A stretch of 64,000 nucleotides of DNA from an uncultured Eggerthellaceae bacterium (GCA_964518575.1 CAZFGW010000002.1:61974-125973); one strand, 5' to 3'. Positions 9,429 to 49,076 are shown, numbered from the stretch's first letter. Program-made: numbers and translations. The notes: generated by a model not told the origin, from the letters alone.

Positions 9429-10214
9429 TTACGCCTTATTCTCGTCCTTCGGCTCTGCGCTCTCGTCTGCGGGCATGGGCACCTGCACGATGGGATCCTG
9501 CGCCGACGCTTCTGCGGGCGCTATCTCGGGAACCGCGGGCGCAGGTTCAGGTGCGGTCACTGGCGTTTGCGCTGCCGGCTCAAGCGCAGGTGCGGGCGCA
9601 GGCTCGGGAGCGGGTGCGGCAACCGGCGCAACTGGCGCAACTGGCGCAGGTGCAGGCACAGGAGCAGGTGCGGGTGCCACTGGCGGCTGCCATGACATCG
9701 GGGGCATATTCGCCATCTGCTGAGCAACTTGCTTGTCCTTGCTCGCGAATACAGCGGCGATGATGCAGAGCACGGTGGTGATGATGCCGCCGCCCAAAAA
9801 TCCGACGATCGCACCGGCGATATTCCATCCGACGATGGTCCCGTATGCATTGATCTTCTTCACGTTCTTCAGCGTGAAGATTCCTGCGACGAGGGGGATG
9901 ATGCTGGCAATGATGCCACAGACACCCGCGATCCTGACAACAAGAATACCGAACTCGAGCGCTGCTCTATCGGAGCTTGAGAGGTAGCTGTCAGAGTAGT
10001 ATCCGTATGGATAACCATGGTGATAACCATAACCCGACCCGTAACCTTGACTTCCCGAGTATCCTGAGGCTGGCGCATAGGCATCGACCACGCTGCCCGC
10101 GAAATTCATCAGGCAGATCAAAACGATCCACCCCAAAATGGCGAGCGCCGCCAGAATGATAGTTGCGATTCCCAGCCCTTTCAGAGCGTTTGCATGTGAT
10201 TGTGGCATGTTCAT
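9429..10214 (-). CDS. Membrane protein with a Gly/Tyr/Ser-rich loop and a Pro/Ala-repeat C-terminal tail
   Basis: I chose the ATG at 10214, which is preceded by AAGAGGA, over the track start at 10340. About 4 TM segments. The loop reads GYSGSQGYGSGYGYHHGYPYGYY and the tail reads PAPAPVPAPAPVAPVAPVAAPAPEPAPAP. Confidence 0.6.
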   Translation of the reverse strand: MNMPQSHANALKGLGIATIILAALAILGWIVLICLMNFAGSVVDAYAPASGYSGSQGYGSGYGYHHGYPYGYYSDSYLSSSDRAALEFGILVVRIAGVCGIIASIIPLVAGIFTLKNVKKINAYGTIVGWNIAGAIVGFLGGGIITTVLCIIAAVFASKDKQVAQQMANMPPMSWQPPVAPAPAPVPAPAPVAPVAPVAAPAPEPAPAPALEPAAQTPVTAPEPAPAVPEIAPAEASAQDPIVQVPMPADESAEPKDENKA

Positions 10215-10544
10215 ATCCTCTTGTCGTGTTTCATTTTCGCGCCCCGCCAGACCAAGCACGGCGGATGGCGCACTCGTATCGCGCATCCCTGCAGCAAAGA
10301 TGTGGCAGAACCGGATTCGAGCGTTGCCATAGTAGCGCATCTAACTGGCTTCTAACAACTGTTCATCAGAATCAATACCAAGGCGTTTGATGAGCGTTAT
10401 CGTCGCTATCATGAAACGACAAGAATGTATGCAAGGCGCTGTGTCCATGCTGAAAAGCCCCTCATCGCGCGCGGTTCGTAATGAATCCCGGGGAGAGCAT
10501 CAGCAACGCACAAGAGCGGTTCTTGATGAAGGTGGGGGATCAAG

Positions 10545-12197
10545 GTGGCAACGTTTCAAGAATTTCTCAAGATTGCCCAACTGACCATTGCGGATAAAAC
10601 GTCCGGCAAACGGATGCATGAGATTGCGCATGTGTTGCGCACCTATAAGGTCACCCAGGGTATGACGCCGCAAAAGGCGGTCCAGATCCTTGAGGCGCTT
10701 GGTCCAACCTACGTGAAGATCGGTCAGATGGCATCCACCCGATCCGACATGCTCCCGAAGGAGTATTGCGAAGCGTTCGAGCGGCTGCATGCTGACGTGT
10801 CTCCGCTGTCGTATGAGGAAGTGCTCGCGTGCATCGATCAAGCGTACGGTGCAAGCTGGGACACGGTATTCCTCGCCATCGATCCTACGCCACTCGGCTC
10901 AGCCTCCATTGCGCAGGTGCACAAGGCGGTGCTTTTAGATGGCAGTGTGGTGGCGGTGAAGGTTCGGCGTCCGCATATCGTCGAGGAGATGGCGGAGGAT
11001 ATCACGATGATGCGCCATCTGCTTGCCACCGCCGAATTCGTCACGACCGAGCATGAAAATGTTCTGCTCAATTTCGAGAATCTGCTCGATGAGCTCGAAC
11101 GCACCACGGACACCGAGCTTGATTTCAATATCGAGCTCAACAATCTCATCCGCTTCCATGCGGAAATCGCGCGGGAGCAGGGTGTCACGTCGCCGATCCC
11201 GTATCCGAAGGTTTCCAATGCGTCCGTGCTCGTGATGGAATATGTCGAAGGGGTGCAGGTGGATGATGTTACCGCTCTCGAGGCTCATGGCGCCCGCCCC
11301 GAGAAAATCGCGTTTCGCATCACGCAAAGCTATATCTCACAAGTGCTCGAAAGCGGGTTTTTCCACGCGGATCCGCATCCGGGAAACATCCTTGTCAACG
11401 GAAATGAGATCATTTGGATCGACCTCGGAATGACGGGCTCGCTTTCTGCAAGCGAGCGCGAACTCGTGGGGCGCATGTTCGATGCTGTGTTCACCAACAA
11501 TGCCTACGAACTCATGCAAGCGGTCATCAGCATCTCGAAGGTAAAAGGTCCGCTTTCTACCGGCATATTGCTCCAGAAGCTCTCAATTCTGCTCAACAAA
11601 TATGCAACCGCCGAACTTGATGATCTTGATCTAGGAGAGATCTTGGGTGAGGTGGTCGAGATCATGCGCGAGCAGAATCTCATCATGTCTTCCTCGGTGA
11701 CCATGCTCGTCAGAGGACTCGTCACTCTTGAGGGCGTCATCCAGAAACTCGCGCCCAGCCTGAACATCCTGCAGGTCGTGCGGGTCTATGTGATGAAGCA
11801 CGCCCTTGACCCCAAGCATATCGAATCGGAAGCGGTGAAACTGATGGGTGAGGGGAAGTCCTCAGTTGAGGCGCTTGCCAAGATACCCGCGCAGATGTCG
11901 AACACGATCGACATGCTGAACAAGGGAGAGATCAGCATCAAGGGCGACATCAGCGTGCCCGAGAATATGCTTGCAACCATCTATGCCTCCGTGGGGCGCC
12001 TCTCGCTCGCATTGATATCGGTTGGACTGTTTTTAGGTTCGTCGCTTCTGTGTACAACCGATATGGAGCCGAGATTTCTCGAAGTTCCCGTTCTTGGCGT
12101 ACTTGGGTACATCGGCGCGTTTATACTAGGGGTGTACGTGATCGTTCAAACATTCAGGTCAAGACACCAGATGAAGAATCATCAGAAGCTTGACTGA
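10545..12197 (+). CDS. ABC1/UbiB-family atypical kinase with C-terminal TM segments
   Basis: 550-aa ORF with a GTG start after GGTGGGGGA. Motifs: [28 protein letters not shown] and IDLGM. Two C-terminal TM helices. Confidence 0.85.
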
Positions 12198-12211
12198 AGA
12201 AAGCAGATGCA

Positions 12212-13054
12212 ATGTTCACCATAGGATGCCACCTTTCCTGCGCGAAGGGGTATGCGCAGATGGCGAAAGACGCCCAGTCTATCGGTGCGAATACCTTCCA
12301 GTTCTTCACGCGCAATCCGCGTGGTGGTAAGGCGAAAGATATCTCGGCAGCCGATATTGCCGAGTTCGAAACCGTGTGCGCTGATGCAGGGATCGAAACG
12401 ATCCTGGCGCATGCTCCCTATACGCTCAATCCCTGCGCACTCAAACCTGATGTCGCTGATTTCGCCCGTGAAGTCATGGCGGACGACCTTGTGCGGATGG
12501 AGGCAACGCCGGGGCAGTTTTACAACATGCATCCAGGGTCGCACGTGAAGCAAGGCGCTGACGTCGGTATCGAAAAGATCGCTCAAACGCTCAACGAGGT
12601 GATGCAGCCCGCGCAGACAACGACGGTGCTTTTGGAGACCATGGCGGGGAAGGGAACGGAAGTCGGGCGCACGTTCGATGAGATCGCACGTATCATTGAG
12701 CGCGTGGATCTTGCTGATCATGTGGGCGTATGTTTGGATACCTGCCACGTCTGGGACGGCGGCTATGACATTGTCGATGATCTCGACGGGGTCCTTGATG
12801 AGTTCGATGCGGTCATCGGACTTGAGCGACTCAAGGCAATCCATTTGAACGACTCGAAGAACGATCGTGCCTCCCACAAGGATCGCCATGCTGCGATCGG
12901 TGAAGGATGCATCACTGCGAACGCCCTTATTCGCCTGACCGCCCATCCGCGTCTGCGGCATCTTCCCTTCTTTTTGGAAACGCCGCAGGATGATCTTGCG
13001 GGGTGGGGTGCCGAGATCGCGCTCATACGAGAAGAGCGCGAAGCATATCTTTGA
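12212..13054 (+). CDS. nfo: Endonuclease IV (AP endonuclease)
   Basis: 280-aa ORF with metal-ligand motifs HAPYTLN, HPGSH, ETMAGKG, CLDTCH, HLNDSK and DRHAAIGEG. Confidence 0.9.
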
Positions 13055-13089
13055 TCTAATAACACGGTGATACAAAAAAAGGAGAGCGC

Positions 13090-14520
13090 ATGGCTGAGAT
13101 CCGATGCCCGCATTGCAAACAAGTATTCCAGGTCGATGACGCTGGCTATGCCAGTTTGGTACAGCAGGTGCGCGATGCGGAATTCGACAAAGCGCTCGCG
13201 GATGCCCTCAGTATGCGCACGGAACTGATCGAGAAGGACGCTCAGAAAAGCCTGCTCGAAAAAGACGGGCGCATCGAGTTGCTCCTTAAAGACATCGAGC
13301 AGATGAAAAAGGATGCCCAAGCATCCGTGAGCGCTTTGCAGGAGCGCTACGAGAGCAAGATCACGCTTTTGGAAACGAGCCTCAAAGACGAGCGGGAAAA
13401 AGCTGAGGCTGACCGGGATGCGGCAATCGCGAAAAGCCAGAGCGACCTCAAAGACGAACTGCATGAGAAGGAGCGCACTATCGCTTCGCTCACCGAACGT
13501 CTATCCCAAACTGAGCAGCGCCTTGAGCAAGATGTCGAACTGGCGGTCTCGAAGGTCAAACAGGAGCAATCGGAACAGCACCATGCGCTCGTGCGTGAAC
13601 TGGATGCGGCGAAGCGGACGCTTGAGCAGGAGAAAGTCCAGCATGAAGTTGAGACCGAACGCTTGCGGGCGCATCATAAGGAGGAAATGGAAATCCGCCT
13701 GCGCAGCAAGGATGAGATGATCAAGGAGCGCGAGCGCACGATCGAGGATTTGCGCGATATGAAGCAGCGCCTCACGGTAAAGATGCTCGGCGAGAGCCTT
13801 GAGCAGCACTGCGAGAACGCCTTCAACAAGATGCGCTCATCGGCGTTTCGCAATGCTGAGTTCAAAAAGGACAGCGATGTCATCGACGGTACGAAGGGCG
13901 ACTACATCTATCGCGAAAAGACCGCGGAGGGTGCTGAGCTCATCTCGATCATGTTCGAAATGAAAACGGAATCGGACACGTCGACCCACCGGAAGAAAAA
14001 CGAGGATCACCTGAAGAAACTCGATGCCGATAGGCGTAAGAAGGGTTGCGAATATGCGGTGCTCGTGAGTACGCTCGAGGCGGAAAGCGAGTACTACAAC
14101 GAGGGCATCGTCGATGTCTCGCACCTCTACGAGAAGATGTATGTGATCCGACCCCAGTTCTTCATCCCGATGATCACGCTTTTGCGCAACGCCGCCGAAT
14201 CCGCCGCATCGTACAAAAACGAGCTTGAATTGGTTCGCCGGCAGAACATCGATGTTACGCACTTCGAGGAAGCGCTTGAGGACTTCAAGGGGAAGTTCGG
14301 AAAGAATTACCGCCTCGCCAGTGAGCGGTTCCAAAAAGCCATCGAGGAAATCGACAAGACGATCGAGCACCTGAACAAGGTGAAGGAGGGGCTGCTCGGA
14401 AGCGAGCGGAATCTCCGCCTTGCAAACGACAAAGCAGAGGCGCTCACCGTAAAAAAGCTCACGCGCGGAAATCCGACGATGAAAGCCGCATTCGATGAAC
14501 TCGAAAAAGATGATGAGTGA
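13090..14520 (+). CDS. DUF2130-like protein: N-terminal CxxC knuckle, long coiled coil, C-terminal PD-(D/E)xK-like region
   Basis: 476-aa ORF. N-terminus is [13 protein letters not shown]. It has E/K/R/L-rich heptad-like sequence for about 250 aa. The C-terminal region contains GDYIY...ISIMFEMK (D...ExK). Confidence 0.7.
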
Positions 14521-36885: not shown

Positions 36886-38150
36886 GCGGCGGAAAGACGG
36901 GTGACTTTTACCAGAATGCCTTCGATGAGAGGAGAGGCGTGTCCGTATCTGAGGATGCGCACGATGTTCTTGGAGAAGAGGCAAGTCAGCACGGAGGGCT
37001 GACTGATAAACAAATAGCCGCGCGTAAACGTCTTCATCAGCAGACATTGATTTATATCGAAGAGGATAAGGCGCGCAAGGTCGAGGCTGCACTCATTGAA
37101 AAGGAGCGCAAGCAAGCCGAGGAATCAAGGAGCGAGCTCGACGAGCAAGGCAATGACGTTCCTCCTATTGTCTATCGTCCCGAGGATGCACCCGAAGGAC
37201 CGCCGTGGCGCTACGATCTTTCTGCTGATGATCTTGCACGCAAAGCGCGTAAACGTGCGGAGCGCGTGGAGAAGAAGCAGAAGATCAAGAGCAAGGCTTT
37301 GGACAAAGCGCCGAAGAAGTTGAAGAATGCGTCTGACTTGCAAGTACGCTTCCGCACCGCGCTCGTGTATACGCTTGTCACGATCGTGTGTGTGCTCGCG
37401 GGTGACATTCCGCTGTTGTTGTATTTGATGGTCGTCGCAGGCATTTGCGCAGGCGAGTTTTTCTATATGCTTCGCTCTGATGCGAAGTTGCCGAATGAGA
37501 TGCTCGGCATTACGGGCGCGGTCTTATATATTCCCGCTACCTACCTCTGGGGTTTGACCGGCGCGATGATCGTGTCGATCCTGCTTCTGCTGGCACTCTT
37601 GGTCTGGTATGTTTTCTGGCTCAAGGCGCGCATCCAAGATGTCGGCGTCAGTTTCTTTGGAGCTGCCTATACGGGATTGTTGCTCTGCGGGCTTGTTATT
37701 ATCCGGCAGGCGGTCGACGGAATATGGGGCGGTGTTGCCCTGTTCTTGCTGTTCTTGAGCGTTTGGACCAACGATGCCTTCGCCTACTTCTTCGGCAGCC
37801 ATTTCGGCAAGCATAAGATGGCTCCGCGCACGAGCCCGAAGAAGAGCTGGGAAGGAATGATCGCGGGGCTCGTCGGATCGGCTCTCGTCTGGGTGGTTCT
37901 TTCGTTCGTCCCCGGTATATCGCTCTCCATCCCGCTTGCAATTCTGTTCGGTATCATCTCGGGTCTCATGGAGGTTTTGGGAGACCTTGTTGAAAGCCGG
38001 ATCAAGCGCAATTCTGGATTCAAGGATTCGGGAACGATCATGCCCGGACACGGCGGATTGCTCGACCGGTGCGACTCGCTGTTCTTGGCGTCGGTCACTT
38101 CCGCCATCTTGCTTTTGTTGGGAGGATGCATTCCCTATGCCTTGTTCTGA
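36882..38150 (+). CDS. cdsA: Phosphatidate cytidylyltransferase with a ~150-aa charged N-terminal extension
   Basis: The ATG at 36882 overlaps the uppS stop (ATGA). CDS signature ESRIKRNSGFKDSGTIMPGHGGLLDRCDS. Confidence 0.9.
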   Translation: MSGGKTGDFYQNAFDERRGVSVSEDAHDVLGEEASQHGGLTDKQIAARKRLHQQTLIYIEEDKARKVEAALIEKERKQAEESRSELDEQGNDVPPIVYRPEDAPEGPPWRYDLSADDLARKARKRAERVEKKQKIKSKALDKAPKKLKNASDLQVRFRTALVYTLVTIVCVLAGDIPLLLYLMVVAGICAGEFFYMLRSDAKLPNEMLGITGAVLYIPATYLWGLTGAMIVSILLLLALLVWYVFWLKARIQDVGVSFFGAAYTGLLLCGLVIIRQAVDGIWGGVALFLLFLSVWTNDAFAYFFGSHFGKHKMAPRTSPKKSWEGMIAGLVGSALVWVVLSFVPGISLSIPLAILFGIISGLMEVLGDLVESRIKRNSGFKDSGTIMPGHGGLLDRCDSLFLASVTSAILLLLGGCIPYALF

Positions 38151-39264
38151 TCTATCGACAATTGAAAATCCCGCAGCGAAAAAGCGGATCGCCATTTTAG
38201 GGTCCACAGGATCGATCGGCACGCAGACGCTCGATGTTGCTCGCGCACATCCCGATAAGCTGAATGTTGTCGGTCTTGCGTGCGCGACTCAGGTCGATCT
38301 CATGAAAGAGCAAGCACGCGAGTTCGATAATGTGGTGCTCGCGGTTGGCGAAGAGGAAGCGATCGGGCTTGCCCTGCGCGATGATGTCGATCTCGTCGTG
38401 AATGCGATGGTGGGCGCTGCTGGTCTGCGCGCGAGCTATTACACGCTGCTCTCGGGCAAAACGCTCGCGCTTGCGAACAAGGAATCGCTCGTAGTAGGTG
38501 GAGATCTGCTCATGCCTCTGGCGCGCAAAGCGAACAATCTCGTGCCCATCGACTCCGAGCATGGAGCCATCTTCCAGTGCTTGATCGGCGAGAATCCCCG
38601 TGAGGTTGCACGTCTTTGGGTCACCGCTTCCGGGGGACCTTTCAGACACAAAACGCGCGACGAGCTCAAAGATGTGACGGCACAGGATGCGCTCAAGCAC
38701 CCGACGTGGAACATGGGCGCGAAAATCACCATTGATTCCTCAACGCTTATGAATAAAGGTCTTGAGGTGATCGAGGCGCACCATTTGTTCGATATGCCTT
38801 ACGATCGCATCGAGGTTCTCGTGCAACCCCAGAGCGCGATCCATTCGATGGTCGAGTTCATTGACGGTTCGGTGAAAGCGCACTTGGGCACGACCGATAT
38901 GCGTATCCCGATCCAATTCGCACTGAGCTACCCTGAGCGCTGGGACGCTCCCGTCACGCCGCTTGATTTCAAAACGCTCGGTTCGCTCGAGTTCGGCACG
39001 CCCGATCTCGAGACGTTCAAGTGCTTGGCGCTCGCCATCCGTGCGGGACGTACGGGCGGCACGTTGCCCTGCGTTATGAATGCTGCCAATGAAGTGGCAG
39101 TCGCGTCGTTCCTTGCTGGTGAATGCGGATTCTTGGATATTGCCGATTGCGTGGAACATGTCATGGAGGCGCATTCCACGCAACCAGTTTCAAGCATTGA
39201 GCAGCTCATGGACATCGATGCTGATGCCCGGCTCCAGGCTGCTCAGTTCCTCGCACGCATCTAA
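38137..39264 (+). CDS. dxr: 1-deoxy-D-xylulose 5-phosphate reductoisomerase
   Basis: The ATG at 38137 lies 10 nt after GGAGGA. Motifs ILGSTGSIGTQTLDV, LANKESLV, DSEHGAIFQC and NKGLEVIEAHHLF. Confidence 0.93.
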   Translation: MPCSDLSTIENPAAKKRIAILGSTGSIGTQTLDVARAHPDKLNVVGLACATQVDLMKEQAREFDNVVLAVGEEEAIGLALRDDVDLVVNAMVGAAGLRASYYTLLSGKTLALANKESLVVGGDLLMPLARKANNLVPIDSEHGAIFQCLIGENPREVARLWVTASGGPFRHKTRDELKDVTAQDALKHPTWNMGAKITIDSSTLMNKGLEVIEAHHLFDMPYDRIEVLVQPQSAIHSMVEFIDGSVKAHLGTTDMRIPIQFALSYPERWDAPVTPLDFKTLGSLEFGTPDLETFKCLALAIRAGRTGGTLPCVMNAANEVAVASFLAGECGFLDIADCVEHVMEAHSTQPVSSIEQLMDIDADARLQAAQFLARI

Positions 39265-41958
39265 GTTCGCATCCAAGCACGCGTCTTTGCTCGGTGCCGC
39301 TCCGATGGCTCGCTGCGCCTCGGAATCTACGGCATCCGGATTGGTGGGAATGTCACCTCCTTTCTCGACGGTCTCAGTCGGTGCAGTGTCGCCTGCCTTA
39401 TCAGCAGGAGCCGTTGGCGCGGTCGTATCGGTCGTTTCGGGTGATCCCGTTACTCCTGTCTCTTTCATCTGCGCATTCTTCGCTGAAGAAGCAAGGCGTG
39501 CGTCTTGTTCAGATGGCACGTTCAGATCGCTTTCGCGCGTATTGGCATCCTCGGTAAAAGGCGAGCGCACCGAAGGGCATCCTGTAGAGAAGCCCTCGGA
39601 ATCGGTAACCGCGCCCACTTCCCATGCGCGAAGGTCGGCAACAAGGTTTGAGCACATGCCGAACATCTGGTGCATGTTGGTGACCTGCGTGGTGTTCCAG
39701 TCCTCGATTCCGTCGATAGCGCCCAAGGCAATACACCCGTTGAACGCGTAGGCGCAACTGCTCAGATGTTCGGTGTGCCAAGCACGGGTATCGAGGTGAG
39801 CGAGACGCGAACAGTTGTTGAACAGCATCGCGATACTTATGCACGATGTGCCTACGAAGGTATCGGGCAGTGCAAGGTGTTCAAGGGATACACAGTCGCT
39901 GAATACCGACTGGAGCGAGGTGACCTTTCCGGTATCCCACGACGCAAGGTCGAGTGCGGAAAGCGAGCTGCATCCAGCAAACATGCTCTCCATCGTACTG
40001 ACCGCTGATGTATCAAGCATAGACACATTGATGTCCACAAGTACAGCGCAGTCTTTGAAGGCAGACGCCATTGAGGTGACCTGAGCGGTGGTAAAGGAAT
40101 GGATATCGATGCTTCGTATATGGGTGCACCCTGAGAAAAGATGCGACATATCGCTCACCGTTGTCGTATCGAGTGCGCTCAGATCAGCGGTTTCAAGATT
40201 GCTTGCATCAGCGAAGAAGTTGCGCAGCGTTCGTGTCGTTATGGGAAGGTCGACGTTTTCGGACACGACTGCGCGAAGTGCGCCCACATACGGCTTCCAG
40301 GGCAACGCACCTTGAGCGAAGTCAGCAGTGTTTCCCTCCATACCGACGAAGGTATGGGAAAGGAGACGCTCTCCGTGAGCATCAGGTACTTCTCCACGCC
40401 CGAAGGCAAGGATGTACCCTGCTTCCTCCGATCCGTAGAGCGCAGCATAGGCACGGCTTTCGCTTAAGCAAGTCCAGCGAACCACCTTGGTACCCGTTTG
40501 ATAGAGCTCCCTCGTTTTGTCCGTTGCACTACGTGGATCGAATCCGTGCCCACCTCCGTCCATGTACCAAAGTCCATCAGAGCCTACCACGGAGGTAGGA
40601 GCGGGAAAGAGGGTGAGGGTGGACGCGTAGAACGTCGATGGAATAATGATCTCGGTAAGGGCGCTACACCCCGTGAGCGCATTCGCATCATAGATCGTAT
40701 CGGGGATGTTCCACGAGCTGAAATCGATGCGCTCCAAAGAAGAGCAACCGCTCCAAGCCCTCCACGTCGTATCGAAGGACGCTCCGAGCTGCCAGCTGCC
40801 CATTCCCTTGATTTCTCTCAAGCGTGAGCAGCCATCGAACAATTGCTGTATGGAGGTCAGCTTGGGAAGAACCCAGCCCGTTACATCGATCGAGTGCAGG
40901 TGGGAGCATCCGGCGAACGAGGATGTCATCAACGTGAAGCGCGCAGTGTTCCATCCCGTAAGATCAAGGTGTTCCACGAGCTCATTGCCGCGAATGATGC
41001 CGCTTATCTGCGTGCAGGAGGACATGTCCCAGTTTTCTATGAATGAAAGCCCCTCCAAGCAATAGCAGCTCTCAAAGGTGTTCACGAATGTCTCGACGTT
41101 TGAAGTGTTCCACGAAGAGCAATCTCCGATCGATCGCAGTTCATAGGCATTGCTGAACGCTCGGTTGAAGTTCTTAACCCGCGAGACATTCCAGCCGGAT
41201 AAATCTCCCACTGAGCACAAAGAAGTGCATCCGCTGAAAAGGTTCGCCATGTTCTCGACCGAAGCGACATTCCACGAGGAAAGGTCACCTCGGGTAAGCT
41301 GCGAGCAGGAACTGAACATGCCTTGCAATGTGATCGCACTGCTCATGTCCCAAGGCGCAAGCGGAGAGATGTCAGTGATGCTGCCATTCGAGAACATCGA
41401 GCTGAAGTCCGTGCACGCGCTTACATCCCATGACGTAAGCTCTTTGATGTCGCCGTTTATACCGCTTAAGGCGAACGCCGAGCACATGCTTGTCGTTCTC
41501 GATGTGTCAAGCAGCGCGAGGTCATAGCGAGTGCAATGATTCAAGGAGGCGAACCAGAAGTCGAGAACCGGCGGCGAGATCGGGTCTATGACTTTGACCG
41601 CCGTGATATTGTTGGCATGAAAGCGCCAGGGAATGTCGGTTGTCCGCTTGAACCGTTTTTGATCGAGAGCGGTATATCCTTGCGTGAGCGTTGCATTCTC
41701 ATAAGCGTCGGGGATCTCGTCTCCCGCCCCGAAGACCAGCGTTTTTCCGCCATAGACTGCGGCGTAGATGGGCTTGTTCTCATCGAGCGCGGCAAGATCG
41801 AAATCATTCGAAATCATATGCTCGGCGGTCAACCAGGCGAATGCCTTTTGAGCACCCAAGCTTGCACCGATAATAACAAGCATGAGAAAAACGATGAGCA
41901 CGCTTAGTCGCACCCGCCTTCGTTTCGACAACGTCTGTTCTGCCATGAAAGTGTTCAT
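39190..41958 (-). CDS. BspA-type (DUF285-like) leucine-rich-repeat secreted protein with a TasA-like N-terminal signal
   Basis: 922-aa ORF. It has two blocks of ~25-aa repeats of the form W(D/N)(V/T)S.V.(N/D)M..MF..C..L. The N-terminus is KRRRVRLSVLIVFLMLVIIGASLGAQKAFAWLTAEH. The C-tail is Thr/Pro/Ala/Asp-rich and I saw no anchor motif. Confidence 0.75.
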   Translation of the reverse strand: MNTFMAEQTLSKRRRVRLSVLIVFLMLVIIGASLGAQKAFAWLTAEHMISNDFDLAALDENKPIYAAVYGGKTLVFGAGDEIPDAYENATLTQGYTALDQKRFKRTTDIPWRFHANNITAVKVIDPISPPVLDFWFASLNHCTRYDLALLDTSRTTSMCSAFALSGINGDIKELTSWDVSACTDFSSMFSNGSITDISPLAPWDMSSAITLQGMFSSCSQLTRGDLSSWNVASVENMANLFSGCTSLCSVGDLSGWNVSRVKNFNRAFSNAYELRSIGDCSSWNTSNVETFVNTFESCYCLEGLSFIENWDMSSCTQISGIIRGNELVEHLDLTGWNTARFTLMTSSFAGCSHLHSIDVTGWVLPKLTSIQQLFDGCSRLREIKGMGSWQLGASFDTTWRAWSGCSSLERIDFSSWNIPDTIYDANALTGCSALTEIIIPSTFYASTLTLFPAPTSVVGSDGLWYMDGGGHGFDPRSATDKTRELYQTGTKVVRWTCLSESRAYAALYGSEEAGYILAFGRGEVPDAHGERLLSHTFVGMEGNTADFAQGALPWKPYVGALRAVVSENVDLPITTRTLRNFFADASNLETADLSALDTTTVSDMSHLFSGCTHIRSIDIHSFTTAQVTSMASAFKDCAVLVDINVSMLDTSAVSTMESMFAGCSSLSALDLASWDTGKVTSLQSVFSDCVSLEHLALPDTFVGTSCISIAMLFNNCSRLAHLDTRAWHTEHLSSCAYAFNGCIALGAIDGIEDWNTTQVTNMHQMFGMCSNLVADLRAWEVGAVTDSEGFSTGCPSVRSPFTEDANTRESDLNVPSEQDARLASSAKNAQMKETGVTGSPETTDTTAPTAPADKAGDTAPTETVEKGGDIPTNPDAVDSEAQRAIGAAPSKDACLDANLDACEELSSLEPGISIDVHELLNA

Positions 41959-41961
41959 GCA

Positions 41962-42615
41962 CTACGAGCTCACGCTTGCCGCCGCGGTGATGGCAGCCTT
42001 CTGTCCGAGATATGCGTCGATTGCGCTCATCGCGTTGGCGAAGCCCTCTGATTGGATTGCAAAGGCATTGACGTCAATGCTCGTCGCGGAAACACCGATG
42101 TTCTGTATCAGATTCGCCAGCGTCACCGAATCGAAGAGCGGGGGCGTGACGGCATTCGGCGCGAGGAGCTCGTCATAGACGTAGGTGTACGTTCTGAATC
42201 CATCCTTCAAGGTTGCATCTCCTTTGGCATGCCATCCGGTATTTACCGTATATGAGAACAGATCGGCATTTTCACCGTGTGTCAGCGAGCCTTCCGCATT
42301 GAGGGCATCTCCGGTGAACACGGGCACTTTTACGGTCGCAGCAACGTAGGCGCCAAGACTTCCCGTATTGCGCACGAGCGGGTCTTTGGCAACGGTTTGA
42401 GCGGGTGCAAGACCTTTGGCGGCGTTCGCTTCGAACGAGGGCTCCGAAAGCTCGATGGACAGATCGGTGTTCAAGGTGAACGGGTTGCTCAAAAAGGCGT
42501 CATCGGTGAGATAGGCGAGCGCGCTTGAAATGCTGAGCGTGCAGGCAAGAGCTCCGCACGCGATCGCGGTCGGGACTTTCCAGGACGGTTTATGAGCTAG
42601 AGGGTTTTCTTGCAT
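41962..42615 (-). CDS. TasA/camelysin-like secreted protein with a SipW-cognate-type signal peptide
   Basis: The ATG at 42615 follows AAGGAG, giving 217 aa. The signal ends SSALAYLTDDAFLSNPFTLNTDLSIEL; compare B. subtilis TasA ...GGGTWAAFND...GTLDL. KDPLVRNTGSLGAYV motif present. Confidence 0.7.
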   Translation of the reverse strand: MQENPLAHKPSWKVPTAIACGALACTLSISSALAYLTDDAFLSNPFTLNTDLSIELSEPSFEANAAKGLAPAQTVAKDPLVRNTGSLGAYVAATVKVPVFTGDALNAEGSLTHGENADLFSYTVNTGWHAKGDATLKDGFRTYTYVYDELLAPNAVTPPLFDSVTLANLIQNIGVSATSIDVNAFAIQSEGFANAMSAIDAYLGQKAAITAAASVSS

Positions 42616-43151
42616 GGTTCTCCTTTCGAAGGGATGTTCATAGTGATGAGGTCCTCTGTTGCGCGAGCGCGAGAGGTGATGACGACCGGGATGAGGAGAA
42701 GGGAAAGCAGACCAAGGAACACGAATCGGTATCGCTCGATCCACATGAGGATGAATCCGAGATTCGGAAGTGTTAACACCGCCTTTCCTTTCACAGCGTC
42801 GTACGGTACGGGAAGGGGATCGGCTTCGCTATTCGCATCTCCTTTCGTCTCGAGCAAAGCACGATCGGTATCATTCCCAACAACCCGGTGGGTCACGATA
42901 TGGGTGTCAAGTGCGTTGCTTTCAAAAGCAACGATGTCGTTTTCGCTGAGATCCCCACCGCTTGTGCGTGCGTCAACGTAGACGAGCGATCCAACGGGAA
43001 CCGCGGGGGTCATCGAGCCCGTGAGAACGGCGTAGGGCATGATGTGGAATATGCCGGGCACGACCGTTGTTGCAAGCGCGAACACAAGCGGCAGGGCAAC
43101 GCAACCAATAAGGCAAAAGAGGACTTTGCGAAGGCGGGTCATGGTAGTCAC
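42597..43151 (-). CDS. sipW: Signal peptidase I, SipW (archaeal/ER, S26B) type
   Basis: 184-aa ORF with Ser box LTGSMTP, His box VTHRVV, the TKGDAN motif and a C-terminal TM. The GTG start overlaps the adhesin stop (GTGA). Confidence 0.8.
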   Translation of the reverse strand: MTTMTRLRKVLFCLIGCVALPLVFALATTVVPGIFHIMPYAVLTGSMTPAVPVGSLVYVDARTSGGDLSENDIVAFESNALDTHIVTHRVVGNDTDRALLETKGDANSEADPLPVPYDAVKGKAVLTLPNLGFILMWIERYRFVFLGLLSLLLIPVVITSRARATEDLITMNIPSKGEPCKKTL

Positions 43152-46100
43152 GGACGCATCCTTCCCGATGTCCTGACCGGTTTTCTCGCACAGCTGCGCT
43201 GGGTTTTCCTTGCCATGCGGCTAAAGAAGAGGGAACATGCGAGCGCGAGCGCGGTCGAGAGTGCGAGGATTGCACCGAGCAGATATGAATCGCCCGTCTG
43301 TGGGAGTGAGCTCAACGTTTTGGGAGTGCGCGACGCATCATCGTTAGGCGTCGGGCGTGTAAACACGGATTGCTCCGCGCTCTCGGCGTCCTCATGTGCG
43401 GCAATCTCTTCATCACCAAGGAAGAGCTTCTCGAAAACCACGAAGTGCTCGTCACTGAGGTCATCTCCCGTTACCGCGAAAGGTATGTCGAGGGTGCCAT
43501 TTGCGCTCTCGGGCGTGAACGAGACTGTTGTGGTGAGAGGATTACCCTCTTCATCAAGATAGGGCGTTGCCTGCGCCGTCTTTGATCCCTCTGTCGGGGC
43601 GAGCGTCATGAGTGTTCCTTGCATGGTGTAGGTGCGCCCTGCTTGAACGTTGGCATACTCAACAGTGTCGACGATATCGACCTTCTTGATCGTTGACGTC
43701 GGTTGTTGCGGTGCTATGTGGTCGGCACTCTCGGCGATGTGGGCGTGCGTTTTAAGGGTAGGTGCTGCGATGCGCACCGTTTGAGCTGCGTTGTTGGGGT
43801 CGGAGTGCTCGAGATGGATTTGCCCGTCGCTGAGAAGCGTTTCGAACACCACGATCTGGCTTTCAGGCTCAAGCTGCGTTGAGTCGAAGTCAAATGCAAC
43901 GGAGGTGATACCGGAGGCGTTTTTCGCTGTGAAGGTCTGCGAAGCAGTAATGGGCGTTCCCGTTTCGTCTAACAAACTTGTTGTTGTTTCGTCGTGCGGG
44001 TTTTTGAGCGCGAGCGACCCGGAAACGGTATATTCCCTGCCTGGTTCGAGATTGCAATAGGAGATAGTGTCGATCAGGTGCGTCTCGGGAGATGCAACAA
44101 TCTCCTTATCGTTGGTGATGGCGCTTGCCGCATAGGTCTCGATGAGGGGCGCATTCACGAAAAGCGTCTGATCGGGGTCAGATAGGTCTTCGTGGGTTGC
44201 AACAACCTCACCCGTTGTCTCGTCGATGAGTCTTTCAAATACGACGATCTTTTGCCCGGCGAGTGAGCGCGTATCGAGGGTGAACGCCATATCAACGTAG
44301 CCGCTTGCTTGCTCGCAGGAAAACGTTTTCGACACCGTTGCCCCAGGTATATCCGTCAAAGGCTGTCCGTCCCCAAAGCGGTAGAGCGTACCTGTGAGCA
44401 CATAGGTCTTACCCTGCGTGAGACCGCTATATTCGACGCGGTCGAGAAGGCTTGCCGTACTTGATGCGGAGAGATACTTGCTCGCATCCTGAGCGTTTTT
44501 GGCAGAGGTATGCAGTGATGGCGTCGGCTTCAGCCGATCGATGACCGTGCCAGCAAAGATGTTGTATGCATCGCGGTTGACCTTGATGTCATCGAGTGTG
44601 ATGAGTTCGAGATCGTGGTTTTTGGTACAGGGGAGTTCTTCGATATGATAGGTGTCAAAGGGAAGCGCTCCCACGGTATCGTTTGGCTGTGTGATGCCGT
44701 TTTCCGCTTTTCCGAACCATACGCCTGCATGCTCGTCGAGCAGCTCCTCGTCAACGGTTCCATCTGCTTTGAGCGCGCGATCATTGGCATTGGTGGATGC
44801 CGTGTGGGGATGCCACGCTGCTGAGGTATCGAATTTCCCCATCTCGCCCGATAAAACGACATGCTGCTCGCCCGTGGTCTTCGAGGTAATGAGGAAGGGG
44901 ATGCCCTCCATGCGTTCTTGGTTCGTTTCTCTGACCTTGATGAATGAGAAGTCGCCGCGCTTCACGCGATTCTGCGCAGCGTTTTGCTGGGTAAAGGGCA
45001 CGATCTTGCCGTTCTCGGTGATGTCGAAGACGCGCTCTGCGGTATCGGTGAGCAGATACCCATCTCCTGCGGCAACTTCGCGAAGAAGATAGCTTCCATA
45101 GGGAAGAAGATCATCGGTGCTCATCGCGCAGCCGTCCTGCACGCAGATCGTGGCGACGACGGCGTCCGTTGGATAGAAAATGCCGCCAACGCAAACGGGG
45201 TGAGCGGAGCGATTGACGATCTCGAACGTTGTTCCGTCCAGCGTAGCAGCTCCGAGCGGATGAGGCAGGAGGCTTTCCGCGTCAAGCTTATCAATCCGCA
45301 CGCCGCCACGGATGGCATGATTGGAAACTTGAGGAGCGGCAAACGAATGGATCGATTCCGCGGTGCCTTCCGGCTCGATCTTCTTCAAAATGACAGTGGG
45401 GTCGAGAAGATAGCCACAGGGCGGCTTCGTTTCCTGAATACTCACGGTACCGAGCGGCATGCAGGGCGCTCCCGTGCTATCCAAATACAGCTCGTCTCCG
45501 CCGATGAGGTGGTCGTCGTCAAGAAGAATCGCTCCGGCATCATCCGTTTTGAAGTGCCAGGTTCGCGTCGGCGTGTGGTTTCCAAGCGCCTCGGCTCCGC
45601 CGTCCAGATAGGCATCGTAGTGCTCGATCTTGAACTCCGCACCCGAAAGGAGAGCGTTGCCTTGAGGGGCGCTTGTTGCTGATTGCGCATCCAGCTTGTT
45701 GAGGAGAAGGTCGATGCGTGCACTTTGCGGAGTATCGGTGACCGAAAGCGCGCTTGTGTTGCCCGCCGTGACATCCACGCGATGGATGCGCTCGTCAACT
45801 GCGAAGCCGCGCCCGATCACCGAGCCGACATTCTCCTTGAGGTAATACGTACCCGGCTGCAGATCGGGGGACGTGCCGTGCCCGTTCGCGTCAAGGGTGA
45901 TGGTTGAAAGATACTCGGTGCAGGCAGGATTGGTGAAGATGTCGTAAGCGATTCCCTCCATGGTATAGAGGTGGTTGCCCTCTGAAAGCGCAGGGTTGCC
46001 CGACTGTTTTGTCAGATCGATCTTACCTTTCGCCTTGATGGCGAATTTGTAGACGCCCACGCCCGGTTGGTTCGCAACGGCGGGACCGACGAAGCCGAGT

Positions 46101-47632
46101 ACGATATAGGGCGTGGGATCAGCGGTGTTGAGATCGAGAACGCGGAGCTTCATCGTGCCTTCGGTGGGATCCGGTCCGGTGGGTAGGGCATTGGTCGTAT
46201 GACAACATTGCAGACCGAAGTGAGCATTGCCATATCCACTGTCCCAGTTGCAATTGATCGGCCACCGCTCCGAGTGCCAATACTGACCATTGCTCACATG
46301 CTCCCCGAACCAGAAGACATAGTTGAAGTAATTACGCGATGCCTGAGAGCCATTCGGGGTGACCGTGAAGTTCGAAACCGCTCCTTCGGCAACACCGTTC
46401 CAGGTAGCGTTGTTGTTCCATGCGATGTACTCGTAGAGGCTGTCGGGATCGTTGACCCATGAGTAGCAATACGCTCCGCTTGCGATGCATGCCTGCCACC
46501 CGAAATCGCCTTCGCTCACATTTGGCCACCAGTAGTTGAAGTCGGTGTAGATATCGAAGGTCTGCCCGATCTTGAGCGCACTGAGATCGAGTTTGTCGAA
46601 GACGACCTCGGGCACGAAGGAGAGTGCTTGCGAGGGCATATCGCCCGCAGCGGGTGTCGTGAAGTACTCAAGCAGATGGGGTGCGTCGATACTGATATCG
46701 ACCGAGGTAAGCGTGAGGGGAGCATAGAAAAGCTCAAGGCAGCCCGTACGCGCGTCATACGCGGCATTGTTTCCTTCGATAAGGTCGATCTTTGAATCGC
46801 TGCCGTTGATCCTGACACTAAGGTCATTAAGCGAGATGAAATGGCTGTATTTAGGCTGGGTGAGGGGAATGCTGAGCGATATATCGAACGTCGACGCTCT
46901 GATCGAATGCGGCTGTTCCGTTTGCACACGGGGGTCATGGCACTCGATGCTGATGTCGACATCGCACGTGCTCTTCCCTCGCACATCGCTCAGGGCGAGC
47001 ATCTGTGCTTGAAGGGCAAACGCAATCTCTTCGCCATCGCGTTCGTAGAGCTCTTTTGGCACATAGATGATGCCGCGATCCTTGTCCATATAGGGTCCAT
47101 CCACGACATTGCCTGAGTTGTCGAGGGTGGTGAAGGCGACGTCGGTGATCGTGGTGATCCCCTTGATGGTGGAAGGGCTTGCATACGCGATGAGATAGGA
47201 AGACGCTTCACCCGGATCCAGAAGATCAGCCGTTAGGTCGAACTGCCCTGCGATCGCCTCCATCCAGCCGCTGTCGAAAAACAGGCTCTCGAAGGTCGTA
47301 TCTGTGCCTTTGAGCGCGCGGTCGACCAGCGTGAGCTTGAGATACAAGGTATGACCCGTATCGCGGAACTTTTCGCGCTGAAACCCGAGCGCGCTTATGA
47401 GTGGGTCGAGGAGATTCTCGTTCGCTGCAAGCGCGTCTTTGGCATCCCCGTCAAGATTATCGCGAAGGTAATCGTTGCGCTGCTCATACACGGGCGGCGC
47501 GATATCGAGCTCTTCGGCGTATGCCGTTGAAGCTCGGGGAACGAGGGGGATTGAGAGCGACAAGGCGCAGATGAGCAGGATGCAGATGAGATGCTGGATC
47601 GCCTCAGTGCGCCCTCTTGCCGTGGTTCTCAT
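43148..47632 (-). CDS. LPXTG-anchored giant adhesin: novel N-terminal domain, Cna-B/SpaA-like Ig domains, three VaFE/Thr-Gln ester-bond repeats
   Basis: The ATG at 47632 follows AAGGAG, giving 1494 aa. Signal peptide ...TAYA-EE. Three ~125-aa repeats at 43358-44530 contain (I/V)VVFE(R/T/K)L and H.D..(D/N/S)..Q. LPQTG lies at 43292-43306, followed by a TM and a basic tail. Confidence 0.8.
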   Translation of the reverse strand: MRTTARGRTEAIQHLICILLICALSLSIPLVPRASTAYAEELDIAPPVYEQRNDYLRDNLDGDAKDALAANENLLDPLISALGFQREKFRDTGHTLYLKLTLVDRALKGTDTTFESLFFDSGWMEAIAGQFDLTADLLDPGEASSYLIAYASPSTIKGITTITDVAFTTLDNSGNVVDGPYMDKDRGIIYVPKELYERDGEEIAFALQAQMLALSDVRGKSTCDVDISIECHDPRVQTEQPHSIRASTFDISLSIPLTQPKYSHFISLNDLSVRINGSDSKIDLIEGNNAAYDARTGCLELFYAPLTLTSVDISIDAPHLLEYFTTPAAGDMPSQALSFVPEVVFDKLDLSALKIGQTFDIYTDFNYWWPNVSEGDFGWQACIASGAYCYSWVNDPDSLYEYIAWNNNATWNGVAEGAVSNFTVTPNGSQASRNYFNYVFWFGEHVSNGQYWHSERWPINCNWDSGYGNAHFGLQCCHTTNALPTGPDPTEGTMKLRVLDLNTADPTPYIVLGFVGPAVANQPGVGVYKFAIKAKGKIDLTKQSGNPALSEGNHLYTMEGIAYDIFTNPACTEYLSTITLDANGHGTSPDLQPGTYYLKENVGSVIGRGFAVDERIHRVDVTAGNTSALSVTDTPQSARIDLLLNKLDAQSATSAPQGNALLSGAEFKIEHYDAYLDGGAEALGNHTPTRTWHFKTDDAGAILLDDDHLIGGDELYLDSTGAPCMPLGTVSIQETKPPCGYLLDPTVILKKIEPEGTAESIHSFAAPQVSNHAIRGGVRIDKLDAESLLPHPLGAATLDGTTFEIVNRSAHPVCVGGIFYPTDAVVATICVQDGCAMSTDDLLPYGSYLLREVAAGDGYLLTDTAERVFDITENGKIVPFTQQNAAQNRVKRGDFSFIKVRETNQERMEGIPFLITSKTTGEQHVVLSGEMGKFDTSAAWHPHTASTNANDRALKADGTVDEELLDEHAGVWFGKAENGITQPNDTVGALPFDTYHIEELPCTKNHDLELITLDDIKVNRDAYNIFAGTVIDRLKPTPSLHTSAKNAQDASKYLSASSTASLLDRVEYSGLTQGKTYVLTGTLYRFGDGQPLTDIPGATVSKTFSCEQASGYVDMAFTLDTRSLAGQKIVVFERLIDETTGEVVATHEDLSDPDQTLFVNAPLIETYAASAITNDKEIVASPETHLIDTISYCNLEPGREYTVSGSLALKNPHDETTTSLLDETGTPITASQTFTAKNASGITSVAFDFDSTQLEPESQIVVFETLLSDGQIHLEHSDPNNAAQTVRIAAPTLKTHAHIAESADHIAPQQPTSTIKKVDIVDTVEYANVQAGRTYTMQGTLMTLAPTEGSKTAQATPYLDEEGNPLTTTVSFTPESANGTLDIPFAVTGDDLSDEHFVVFEKLFLGDEEIAAHEDAESAEQSVFTRPTPNDDASRTPKTLSSLPQTGDSYLLGAILALSTALALACSLFFSRMARKTQRSCARKPVRTSGRMRP

Positions 47633-47915
47633 GAATTGCTCCTTTCCGCGAGGTTCTCGCTGCCATGGATGAAACAGGTGGTAAGGCACAACCTTAGAGA
47701 CGCCATCTGGCGGAATGTTTGCGCGCATCTTGCGTCCGCGCTGCAAAAATCAAAGGGATAACAGGTGTGTTCTTTGTAAAAATCAACGGTTTTCGAAGCG
47801 AAACGCACCGATCTCTATAGAAAACCTTGCAGATTTCTGATAATCTCTGCGAAAAATCGAACACGGGTATGCGCGCGGGTGGAGAGGCGCGCAAAAACGT
47901 ATAAGGATCTGAGCC

Positions 47916-49076
47916 ATGAACATCATCTTTATCATCTTTTGCGCGGTGATCGTGATAGGGTTTATCGTTCTCATCCATGAGGGCGGGCACTATCTTGCGG
48001 CGCGCGCGTTTAAGGTACGGGTCACCGAGTTCATGCTCGGTTTGCCCGGACCCAGTATCGGGTTTACGAAAGGTGGGACGCGTTTCGGTATTACTGCTGT
48101 TCCGCTCGGTGGCTATGCCAAGGTGTGCGGCATGGAAACCGGACCGATGAGTCCGCACTTAAAGCCGGTTCTTGCTTGCGTATATAAGCGTGGGACGGTG
48201 CTTATGGAAGAGGTTGCCGCCGCGTGTGGTATCACCGACGAAGAGGCGTACGATGCGCTTGAAGAGCTGGTTGAATGGGGCTCGATCGATGGTCCCACCC
48301 GGGCGGACAAACATAATACCTATCGCACACCGGCGCGCGCCATGACTGCGCAAAGCGTTGATAAAAGTGTTCGCGAGAGCGCGGGCGAAACCTCCCAAAC
48401 CGCCGAGACCGCCCAAACCTCACAAACTGCGCTTGCCTCGCCGCATAAGGCGCGTGCAGGAGAGCCCCTTTCCATCGCGGATATCGATGCGTTTTTCGCA
48501 AGCGAATATGCAGTTCAGTATCGAAGCTTGCCATTTTGGAAGCGCAGCGTGATTCTGCTTGCCGGAATTGCTGTGAACCTTCTGTTCGCGATCATCGCAT
48601 TCGTGCTCGTCTACTCCGTGATCGGCATTGACATTGTCCATCCTCAAACGGGCGAGATGGCACACATGACGCTCAATCCTATTCAGTCCATACAGGCGGG
48701 ATTCGGTGCCATCGTGATGACATTCGAGTCCATCCTCGGATTGTTCAATCCCGAGACCGCCGCGCAGACGGTATCGAATTCGACGAGTATCGTCGGAATC
48801 GCAGTGATGTCGGCTGATTTCTTCGCACGCGGAGTGGCGGACGCACTGTTCTTCATGGCGATCGTGTCGATTTCCATCGGATTGATGAATCTTTTGCCGA
48901 TTCCGCCGCTCGATGGAGGTCGGTTCGTGGTTGAGATCATCCAGAAGGTCTCGCGACGCGACGTTCCCATGAAGGCGCTCGGGTATATCTCCTTTGCGGG
49001 GATGGCGCTGTTTTTGTGCTTCTTCGTGTTCATGTTGAATCAGGATATTCAGCGCTACATCTTCGGAAACTGGTAG
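47916..49076 (+). CDS. rseP: Site-2 (M50/RseP-family) intramembrane metalloprotease, apparently PDZ-less with a large insertion
   Basis: 386-aa ORF with HEGGHYLAAR (HExxH), PLGGYAKV and NLLPIPPLDGG motifs. Confidence 0.85.
   Translation: MNIIFIIFCAVIVIGFIVLIHEGGHYLAARAFKVRVTEFMLGLPGPSIGFTKGGTRFGITAVPLGGYAKVCGMETGPMSPHLKPVLACVYKRGTVLMEEVAAACGITDEEAYDALEELVEWGSIDGPTRADKHNTYRTPARAMTAQSVDKSVRESAGETSQTAETAQTSQTALASPHKARAGEPLSIADIDAFFASEYAVQYRSLPFWKRSVILLAGIAVNLLFAIIAFVLVYSVIGIDIVHPQTGEMAHMTLNPIQSIQAGFGAIVMTFESILGLFNPETAAQTVSNSTSIVGIAVMSADFFARGVADALFFMAIVSISIGLMNLLPIPPLDGGRFVVEIIQKVSRRDVPMKALGYISFAGMALFLCFFVFMLNQDIQRYIFGNW

Follow-up and report, generated by a model that had tools for sequence, protein, structure and literature searches.

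A window of 64,000 nucleotides from an uncultured Eggerthellaceae bacterium (GCA_964518575.1 CAZFGW010000002.1:61974-125973; positions are counted from the first letter of this whole stretch) raises the question of why a large leucine-rich repeat (LRR) protein of the BspA/DUF285 type should be encoded together with a SipW-type signal peptidase and a small TasA-like protein. Here, we report that this LRR protein, P0001, begins with a conserved segment that matches the N terminus of its TasA-like partner, P0002, and that is confined to DUF285 proteins encoded beside sipW. From sequence comparison and analogy with characterized fibres, we give slightly better than an even chance to the interpretation that P0001 is a SipW-processed accessory subunit, similar to TapA or to a tip protein, whose free N-terminal strand would dock an LRR head onto the fibre. 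The genes concerned are as follows.

39190..41958, minus strand: gene of the LRR protein (P0001, 922 aa, DUF285/PARCEL), from the open reading frame (ORF) call; final gene of its operon
41962..42615, minus strand: gene of a BsaA/TasA-like putative fibre subunit (P0002, 217 aa), from hidden Markov model (HMM) matches and gene context
42597..43151, minus strand: gene of a SipW-type (archaeal/endoplasmic reticulum-type) signal peptidase I (184 aa), from TIGR02228

The N terminus of P0001 and its likeness to P0002

The N-terminal part of P0001 is composed of three elements.

41836..41958, minus strand: signal peptide, residues 1-41, with n-region KRRRVR, h-region LSVLIVFLMLVIIGASLG and c-region AQKAFA (A39-x-A41)
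41794..41835, minus strand: predicted mature N terminus, W42-L55 (WLTAEHMISNDFDL), donor-strand-like (I49-x-N51-x-F53)
41773..41793, minus strand: short variable linker, residues 56-62 (AALDENK/P), with low predicted local distance difference test (pLDDT) scores, preceding the first LRR N-cap

Residues 35-57 read GAQKAFAWLTAEHMISNDFDLAA, and we infer cleavage after A41. The segment AFA/WLTAEHMISNDFDL (with the slash at the predicted cut) is homologous in register to ALA/YLTDDAFLSNPFTL of P0002: W42-L55 aligned with Y35-L48, and the alternating pattern I49-x-N51-x-F53-x-L55, as it occurs in donor strands, falls on the strand pattern L42-x-N44-x-F46-x-L48 of the partner. A relaxed regular expression for the motif matched P0001 and P0002 as the sole hits among the 9116 ORFs of this 1.73-Mb genome. 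When a 22-column profile, built from the DUF285 N termini of seven relatives and without P0001, was run against the same ORFs, the top match was P0001 (E = 9.5e-6), followed by P0002 (E = 0.006), and the third-ranked match had an E value of 2. Furthermore, hhalign aligned 11 DUF285 N termini with 15 TasA-like proteins at a probability of 94.8% (E = 4.8e-8) over 34 columns, which begin where the h-region ends, pass A-x-A and continue into (W/Y)LTDxxxxxNxFxL, in register over the predicted cleavage site. These results bear out the original prediction, made by reading the DNA, that P0001 starts with the pattern of its TasA-like neighbour.

Conservation of the motif and its linkage to sipW

Forty relatives were searched for the locus, and this revealed at least eight genomes of the same genus and two metagenome contigs in which sipW is followed by a TasA-like gene and then a DUF285 gene. 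In the sipW-linked DUF285 proteins, the hydrophobic core is directly followed by A-[FLIY]-A-W-[LFM]-[TVA]-[DA]-x3-[hydrophobic]-[STV]-N-x-[FLV]-x-[IL], and the TasA-like partners of these genes read A-x-A-Y-L-T-x6-N-x-F-x-L. The motif was present in all ten DUF285 genes beside sipW and a TasA-like gene versus none of 31 DUF285 paralogues elsewhere (Fisher p = 9e-10), the latter taken from 20 loci of relatives without a sipW or TasA-like gene. Motif profile scores were 17-24 bits for the linked proteins and at most 2.2 bits for the unlinked paralogues, all 31 of which have ordinary signal peptides.

In a full-length alignment of ten orthologues (about 27% identity), A39, A41 and W42 were among just 20 invariant columns. 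Downstream of the strand comes a short linker rich in Pro, Glu and Ala, which varies in length and sequence between the orthologues, and then a conserved LRR N-cap (PYAALYG...LVFGRGDEIP). The motif, for which the original prediction had proposed an alignment of related N termini, is thus conserved, with A-x-A-W invariant in all ten. Database searches placed it in few other proteins: when a database of 5.8 billion clusters was searched for DUF285 homologues, it was carried by five of the best 120, namely the orthologues P0004, P0071 and P0082, the protein P0012 and the fusion protein P0048. A profile of strand, linker and N-cap retrieved 68 proteins from 1.84 billion representatives, about 18 of them with the N-terminal strand, and a homologue search with residues 28-110 of P0001 found the 99%-identical P0004 alone. 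The strand-bearing DUF285 family is small and rare, and the motif in these N termini appears to be under selection.

Since the motif is conserved, tied to sipW and aligned with the TasA-like N termini, a shared route through the dedicated peptidase is the most economical explanation, and P0001 is quite probably at least a substrate of the SipW route. The earlier suggestion that P0001 might be a second SipW substrate gains support from conservation, linkage and in-register alignment alike.

Cleavage signal or donor strand

Signal peptidases read chiefly positions -3 and -1. With the cut placed by A-x-A, mature P0001 would start at W42 and mature P0002 at Y35. The larger share of the motif would hence fall within the mature chain, and it is more likely a donor strand for fibre docking than a peptidase signal alone. 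A narrower explanation is that P0001 is a second SipW substrate only, the motif being a recognition or cleavage context and the LRR protein being released or held non-covalently at the wall. This agrees with an invariant A-x-A in a motif that spans the cleavage site, with the nature of TIGR04088, itself a signal-peptide-type model extending into the mature region, and with C. perfringens BsaC, the adhesin-type product of the last gene of a sipW operon, which occurs as a free secreted monomer (PMC11580942). We nevertheless consider it rather unlikely, since the motif extends beyond the -3/-1 positions: conservation runs 12-14 residues into the mature protein with the periodicity of a beta-strand (hydrophobic-x-N-x-hydrophobic-x-hydrophobic), and the equivalent residues form the donor strand in TasA and BsaA (PMC9674648, PMC11580942). 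The TasA-domain::DUF285 fusions described next argue for physical mounting as well.

Fusions and divergent clusters

In related clusters, a whole TasA-like domain is fused before the DUF285 repeats, as in L028 (719 aa), L032 (1023 aa), L034 (695 aa) and L036.

L028:5339-7498, L032:6984-10055 and L034:5402-7489, minus strand: TasA-domain::DUF285 fusions in sipW clusters
L036:6001-10011 and 10086-13913, plus strand: TasA-domain::DUF285 fusions in a sipW cluster

These fusions bear the canonical AYLTD strand and come from same-genus and same-family relatives and a metagenome contig. As natural proteins they show DUF285 heads carried by a fibre module of this type, and such heads appear to have been joined to it repeatedly, by a whole subunit domain or by the strand alone. 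The fusions could also be taken to mean that P0001 follows ordinary export with cleavage by a LepB-type enzyme and that its N-terminal likeness is the relic of a TasA-domain::DUF285 fusion which lost the TasA domain, an account with which the presence of a LepB-type enzyme in the genome and the failure of TIGR04088 to match P0001 also agree. A relic would decay, yet here A-x-A-W does not vary, about 18 clusters (50% identity level) retain the strand pattern, and the motif is confined to sipW neighbourhoods; this account is therefore quite improbable in our judgement.

The motif-bearing P0012 comes from a divergent lineage and starts with AAYLHDSESIDNSFSF; a SipW gene lies three genes (about 1.3 kb) upstream of its own gene, and a TasA-like gene belongs to the cluster too. 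A larger cluster of a divergent lineage, L038:1-16515 (ENA ERZ28616195), encodes in succession a SpaA/TQ adhesin, a sortase, a TasA-like protein, SipW, a pair of small secreted proteins, a DUF285 protein of 1504 aa whose strand is of the AY type, and a Flg_new protein. The two small secreted proteins are of 185 and 248 aa, the 185-aa one starting with FASYTHQYRATNTFEVG, and they may be further minor subunits.

Signal peptidases of the genome

One SipW-type and one LepB-type signal peptidase (the latter on contig C9) are encoded in this genome. The SipW-type gene lies two genes upstream of the P0001 gene in the same operon, a synteny kept in at least ten loci. The enzyme has the elements S46 (GSM), H88 (THR) and GDAN, its catalytic Ser and His being kept in 15 of 16 relatives, and it was matched by TIGR02228 with 69.9 bits (cut-off 51.85) and by the SipW model NF046067 with E = 8e-19, under the cut-off of that model. 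A degenerate SipW paralogue, in which Ser is changed to Thr (DTM) and His to Trp (GWR), was seen at L032:10052-10696 on the minus strand (G018:C14), upstream of a TasA-domain::DUF285 fusion; intact SipW and TasA-like genes follow this paralogue, which may be an inactive accessory copy.

Domain organization of P0001

The body of P0001 is divided as follows.

40639..41772, minus strand: LRR module 1, residues ~63-440, N-cap (IYAAVYG..LVFGAGDEIP) and PARCEL/DUF285 repeats
40453..40638, minus strand: inter-module non-repeat segment, residues ~441-502, C-cap hairpins (GLWYMDGGG...)
39550..40452, minus strand: LRR module 2, residues ~503-803, N-cap (AYAALYG..LAFGRGEVP) and PARCEL repeats, with LRR_5 and DUF285 matches
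39193..39549, minus strand: disordered C-terminal tail, residues 804-922, A/D/T/E/S/P-rich, pLDDT below 50

P0001 matched PF03382 (DUF285) with 243.8 bits over six stretches (cut-off 25), the PARCEL repeat TIGR02167 with 152.4 bits (cut-off 30) and LRR_5 with 50.9 bits, and NF045896 gave 124 bits, under its cut-off of 500. Its repeats have a period of about 26 aa and form two blocks (~150-440 and ~575-800), with W-D/N-V/T positions every 26-27 residues, and between the blocks lie a cap and a second N-cap module. In the AlphaFold2 (AF2) model, most of module 2 exceeds a pLDDT of 90 and its strands recur at 26-residue intervals between residues 616 and 749; in the inter-module segment, a helix (475-484) lies between two strands (464-466 and 492-496). 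The top Foldseek matches of P0001 were the BspA-type LRR proteins 4H09 and 4GT6 of gut bacteria (E = 3e-6 to 2e-5). Another DUF285-like ORF of the same genome, of 2338 aa and open at the contig start (G000:C25:10-7026, L060), matched P0001 weakly (E = 3.6e-10) and had no TasA-like strand in the part present.

No ordinary anchor was recognized, whether of the lipoprotein kind known from Mbov_0838-type and Listeria members or of another standard type. P0001 contains no lipobox and nowhere a match to LP.[TSA][GANS]; no C-terminal transmembrane (TM) segment was found, the Kyte-Doolittle maximum over the last 150 residues being 0.38, and neither P0001 nor seven orthologues have a C-terminal LPXTG with a hydrophobic stretch and a basic tail. 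The orthologue tails are acidic and without conservation. Hence several features read from the DNA at the outset hold: two blocks of ~25-aa repeats around a non-repeat part (the period being ~26 aa), a disordered Thr/Pro/Ala/Asp-rich tail, with which composition and pLDDT below 50 agree, and, by motif and hydropathy scans, a protein lacking LPXTG, lipobox and C-terminal TM segment.

The sole hydrophobic window of P0001 covers residues ~13-41, and AF2 drew the signal-peptide helix over residues 10-47. A single long hydrophobic helix and no second anchor would suit an uncleaved signal anchor, by which P0001 would be a type II membrane protein and the motif a juxtamembrane element, and BsaA oligomers are reported to be membrane-tethered before SipW cleavage (PMC11580942). 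Set against this is the invariant A-x-A directly before a conserved aromatic residue, exactly as in the TasA-like partner, and we regard the signal anchor as very improbable.

The TasA-like partner P0002

P0002 is laid out as a signal peptide, ALA/YLTDDAFLSNPFTL and a beta-sandwich core. It reached 19.1-20.2 bits with TIGR04088 (cut-off 19), 31-32 bits with the BsaA family model TIGR04090 (E = 8e-8, under the cut-off of 60) and 17 bits with PF12389 (under the cut-off of 22.5); its orthologues matched TIGR04090 in 14 of 15 cases and PF12389 in 11 of 15 at E < 0.01. In its AF2 model, the core (residues 51-217, pLDDT above 90) is a beta-sandwich with a C-terminal helix, and residues 1-50 are unplaced. 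From these comparisons, P0002 appears to be a distant TasA/BsaA relative only.

A proposed model for docking of P0001 onto the fibre

P0001 and P0002 share one design, a strand that AF2 left unplaced ahead of a well-folded domain; in P0001, residues 43-57 were unplaced with pLDDT below 50, and the W42-L55 peptide was not packed against the LRR body. If P0001 is a strand-docked accessory subunit, it would be exported by Sec through its classical n-h-c signal peptide and cut by the co-encoded SipW after A39-F40-A41, P0002 being cut likewise after A32-L33-A34, as the shared, conserved and sipW-linked motif suggests. The freed WLTAEHMISNDFDL, on its flexible linker, would mimic YLTDDAFLSNPFTL and enter the acceptor groove of a fibre subunit, by analogy with TapA/TasA and BsaA. 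P0001 would then sit at the groove end of the fibre as a nucleator, cap or tip adhesin and be retained without LPXTG, lipid or TM segment, which would explain the missing ordinary cell-wall anchor. It would be confined to that end because it has the strand and lacks an acceptor domain. Under the BsaA model, in which subunits are added at the membrane (PMC11580942), an LRR protein incorporated first would come to lie at the distal tip.

A more speculative last step would be an isopeptide bond between N51 of P0001 and K77 of the subunit. N44, E58 and K77 of P0002 are shared without exception by 15 sequences. The BsaA strand (28-38) contributes V33 and F37 to the core, and its N35 is joined to K74 by an isopeptide bond with E56 as the catalyst (PMC11580942). 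The BsaA pattern V33-x-N35-x-F37 with E56/K74 matches the L/I-x-N-x-F strand with E58/K77 here (PMC11580942), and the triads, equated from published positions and motif, have an E-to-K spacing of 18 in BsaA (N35/E56/K74; PMC11580942) versus 19 in P0002. We nonetheless find it doubtful that P0001 is mounted covalently and without sortase as a strand-tagged tip adhesin, by an autocatalytic N51-K77 isopeptide bond with Glu58 as the catalyst.

Several points weigh against strand docking after SipW cleavage. Both the cleavage and the groove docking of P0001 we infer from its sequence and by analogy, and the A-x-A of P0001 could alternatively be cut by the LepB-type enzyme. The SipW-signal model TIGR04088, proposed at the outset as a check, found P0002 and missed P0001, with no match even at E <= 10 when run on the N terminus alone or on the six-frame genome, and it matched 1 of 11 orthologous N termini (E = 0.008). 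Profiles of the TasA-like proteins alone (30 or 22 columns) scored P0001 weakly, at 3.9-5.7 bits. The similarity between P0001 and P0002 reaches significance in two settings only, a search started with the DUF285 N termini and the comparison of profile with profile; taken alone the likeness is weak, and it is the comparative data that settle homology. Foldseek of the P0002 model against the PDB returned no TasA, just generic beta-sandwiches (E >= 3.6e-3), and the TasA-like alignment profile found no PDB relative. With no structural or PDB match, the TasA/BsaA assignment of P0002 depends on mostly sub-cut-off HMM matches and gene context. The strand Asn is changed to Ser or Asp in about one-third of family members, and an Asn-Lys isopeptide lock is for that reason not general. 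Finally, a folded LRR protein of ~95 kDa would have to cross the wall.

The surrounding locus

The operon begins with an adhesin gene.

43148..47632/47746, minus strand: LPXTG adhesin gene (1494/1532 aa), SpaA and three TQ-ester/VaFE domains

On the minus strand, the genes for the LPXTG adhesin, SipW, the TasA-like protein and the LRR protein follow one another in tight packing; the first two junctions are overlaps of 4 and 19 nt, and the third is a gap of 3 nt. The ORF call and the gene order agree with the initial description of 39190-41958 as the last operon gene, encoding 922 aa. A related-locus search queried with P0002 alone found no relatives. A promoter and terminator scan of the operon gave counts near the level of shuffled sequence and was uninformative.

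The adhesin scored 261 bits with PF18202, 72 bits with PF17802 and 268 bits with NF033903. Its C-terminal part consists of LPQTGD, a TM segment and a basic tail, in that order, and its signal peptide is ordinary, of the AYA/EE type. We considered the adhesin as a wall anchor of the fibre and rejected it: its 640-residue head, compared by hhalign with the alignment of TasA-like proteins, reached a probability of 0.2%, and the protein has an ordinary signal and no donor-like N terminus. As it has no TasA-like domain and an ordinary signal peptide, the adhesin was not counted as a fibre part. Orthologue N termini point to MRTTARGRT (47632) as the likely start of the adhesin; the longest ORF opens 38 codons farther upstream, at a TTG. 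The adhesin has a head of ~520 aa with no family assignment.

At its other end, the operon meets a convergent dxr gene. The P0001 gene and dxr, whose end is at 39264, overlap by 75 nt (39190-39264), so that the P0001 stop codon and the 24 codons before it are antisense to the 3' end of dxr, and no terminator-like site was seen between the two genes. This dxr is 65-67% identical to those of Eggerthellaceae metagenome-assembled genomes. When 80 named Coriobacteriia dxr loci were compared with positions 38131-48200 of the window, none had the sipW, TasA-like and DUF285 genes, and seven, Adlercreutzia among them, had a homologue of the adhesin (LPXTG TQ-ester) alone beside dxr. From these counts, the three-gene module in the genus of the window looks like an addition next to an older adhesin gene.

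Discussion

Fibres of the TasA/BsaA type are today regarded as polymers held together by donor strands, and the attachment of cargo and adhesins to them has been described mainly for TapA of Bacillus and in some computational AbpX/Tafi predictions. P0001 offers a compact test case, in which a peptide of ~14 residues is seemingly the sole link of a ~95-kDa LRR adhesin to the fibre. The pattern would provide a genome rule for fibre-mounted cargo, a copy of the subunit strand placed right after A-x-A and encoded beside sipW, and docking by the strand would account for "anchorless" BspA/DUF285 proteins in gut Eggerthellaceae. Because TIGR04088 misses the W-type variant, annotation pipelines will overlook W-type substrates. 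Should the Asn-Lys lock exist, it would be a natural peptide-tag ligation, an analogue of SpyTag/SpyCatcher with a possible use in protein engineering, and covalent mounting, taken with the fusions, would give gut Actinomycetota a modular, Gram-positive equivalent of the tip adhesins of chaperone-usher systems.

Comparison with known systems

The closest functional analogue of P0001 is TapA. The donor strand of a TasA fibre subunit is formed by its residues 28-38 and enters the next subunit (PMC9674648). At its mature N terminus, TapA (AFHDI) imitates TasA (AFNDI), and this end initiates filaments through strand complementation, TapA residues 44-57 being sufficient in vivo (PMC10151520), and donor-strand complementation is required in TapA/TasA (PMC10151520, PMC9674648). 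Like TapA of B. subtilis tapA-sipW-tasA, P0001 is encoded with a SipW and a fibre subunit and presents a strand, then a flexible stretch, then a folded domain. TapA is a second SipW substrate and a non-fibre accessory protein (PMC10151520, PMC9674648), and P0001 would be its equivalent. Pfam and NCBIfam scans of P0001 gave matches to DUF285, LRR and PARCEL models only, with no sequence homology to TapA. Unlike the small immunoglobulin (Ig) domain of TapA, the body of P0001 has ~740 residues and two DUF285/PARCEL LRR solenoids; the gene order here is sipW, subunit, accessory protein, the host is one of the Coriobacteriia, and the subunit is closer to the BsaA branch.

The closest locus is C. 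perfringens sipW-bsaA-bsaB-bsaC, which likewise comprises a SipW gene, a small BsaA-type subunit and a final large protein with an adhesion domain, and which likewise has a sortase or LPXTG gene nearby (PMC7395162, PMC11580942). BsaC differs in having a von Willebrand factor A (vWA) domain, not LRRs, and it was recovered as a free monomer dependent on type IV pilins (PMC11580942); a donor-strand-like N terminus, as in P0001, is not reported for it. The export of an LRR adhesin by a SipW route, called unusual in the original prediction, is less so in this light, as TapA and BsaC are non-fibre proteins of sipW operons and tip proteins have been predicted (PMC10151520, PMC11580942, bioRxiv 10.64898/2026.01.04.697558).

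The AbpX/Tafi loci of the TasA superfamily combine a dedicated signal peptidase I, a donor-strand subunit, predicted tip proteins and LPXTG or SLH (S-layer homology) anchors, and in AlphaFold3 (AF3) models their tip, minor and anchor proteins join the fibre through donor-strand complementation (bioRxiv 10.64898/2026.01.04.697558). The branches with these tip proteins have a 10-TM peptidase or are archaeal, whereas the peptidase here is SipW-type, with terminal hydrophobic segments only. In the best-described abpX locus, the co-assembling minor subunit is itself AbpX-like, whereas here a bare strand of ~14 residues sits on a DUF285 LRR protein in Actinomycetota. BspA/DUF285 proteins of Mycoplasma, Listeria and gut Firmicutes (4H09, 4GT6) share the repeat family and LRR fold of P0001. 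Typical members are lipoproteins, or have ordinary signals with LPXTG, SLH or other wall-binding modules, which P0001 lacks; conversely, the TasA-like strand of P0001 is absent from 115 of the 120 best DUF285 homologues and from all 31 unlinked paralogues. A full-text literature search returned no paper linking DUF285 with SipW or TasA. Thus, while fibre tip proteins have been predicted before, what is new here is that a DUF285 LRR adhesin, from an uncultured genus of the Eggerthellaceae, bears a putative strand-only plug with a W-type motif.

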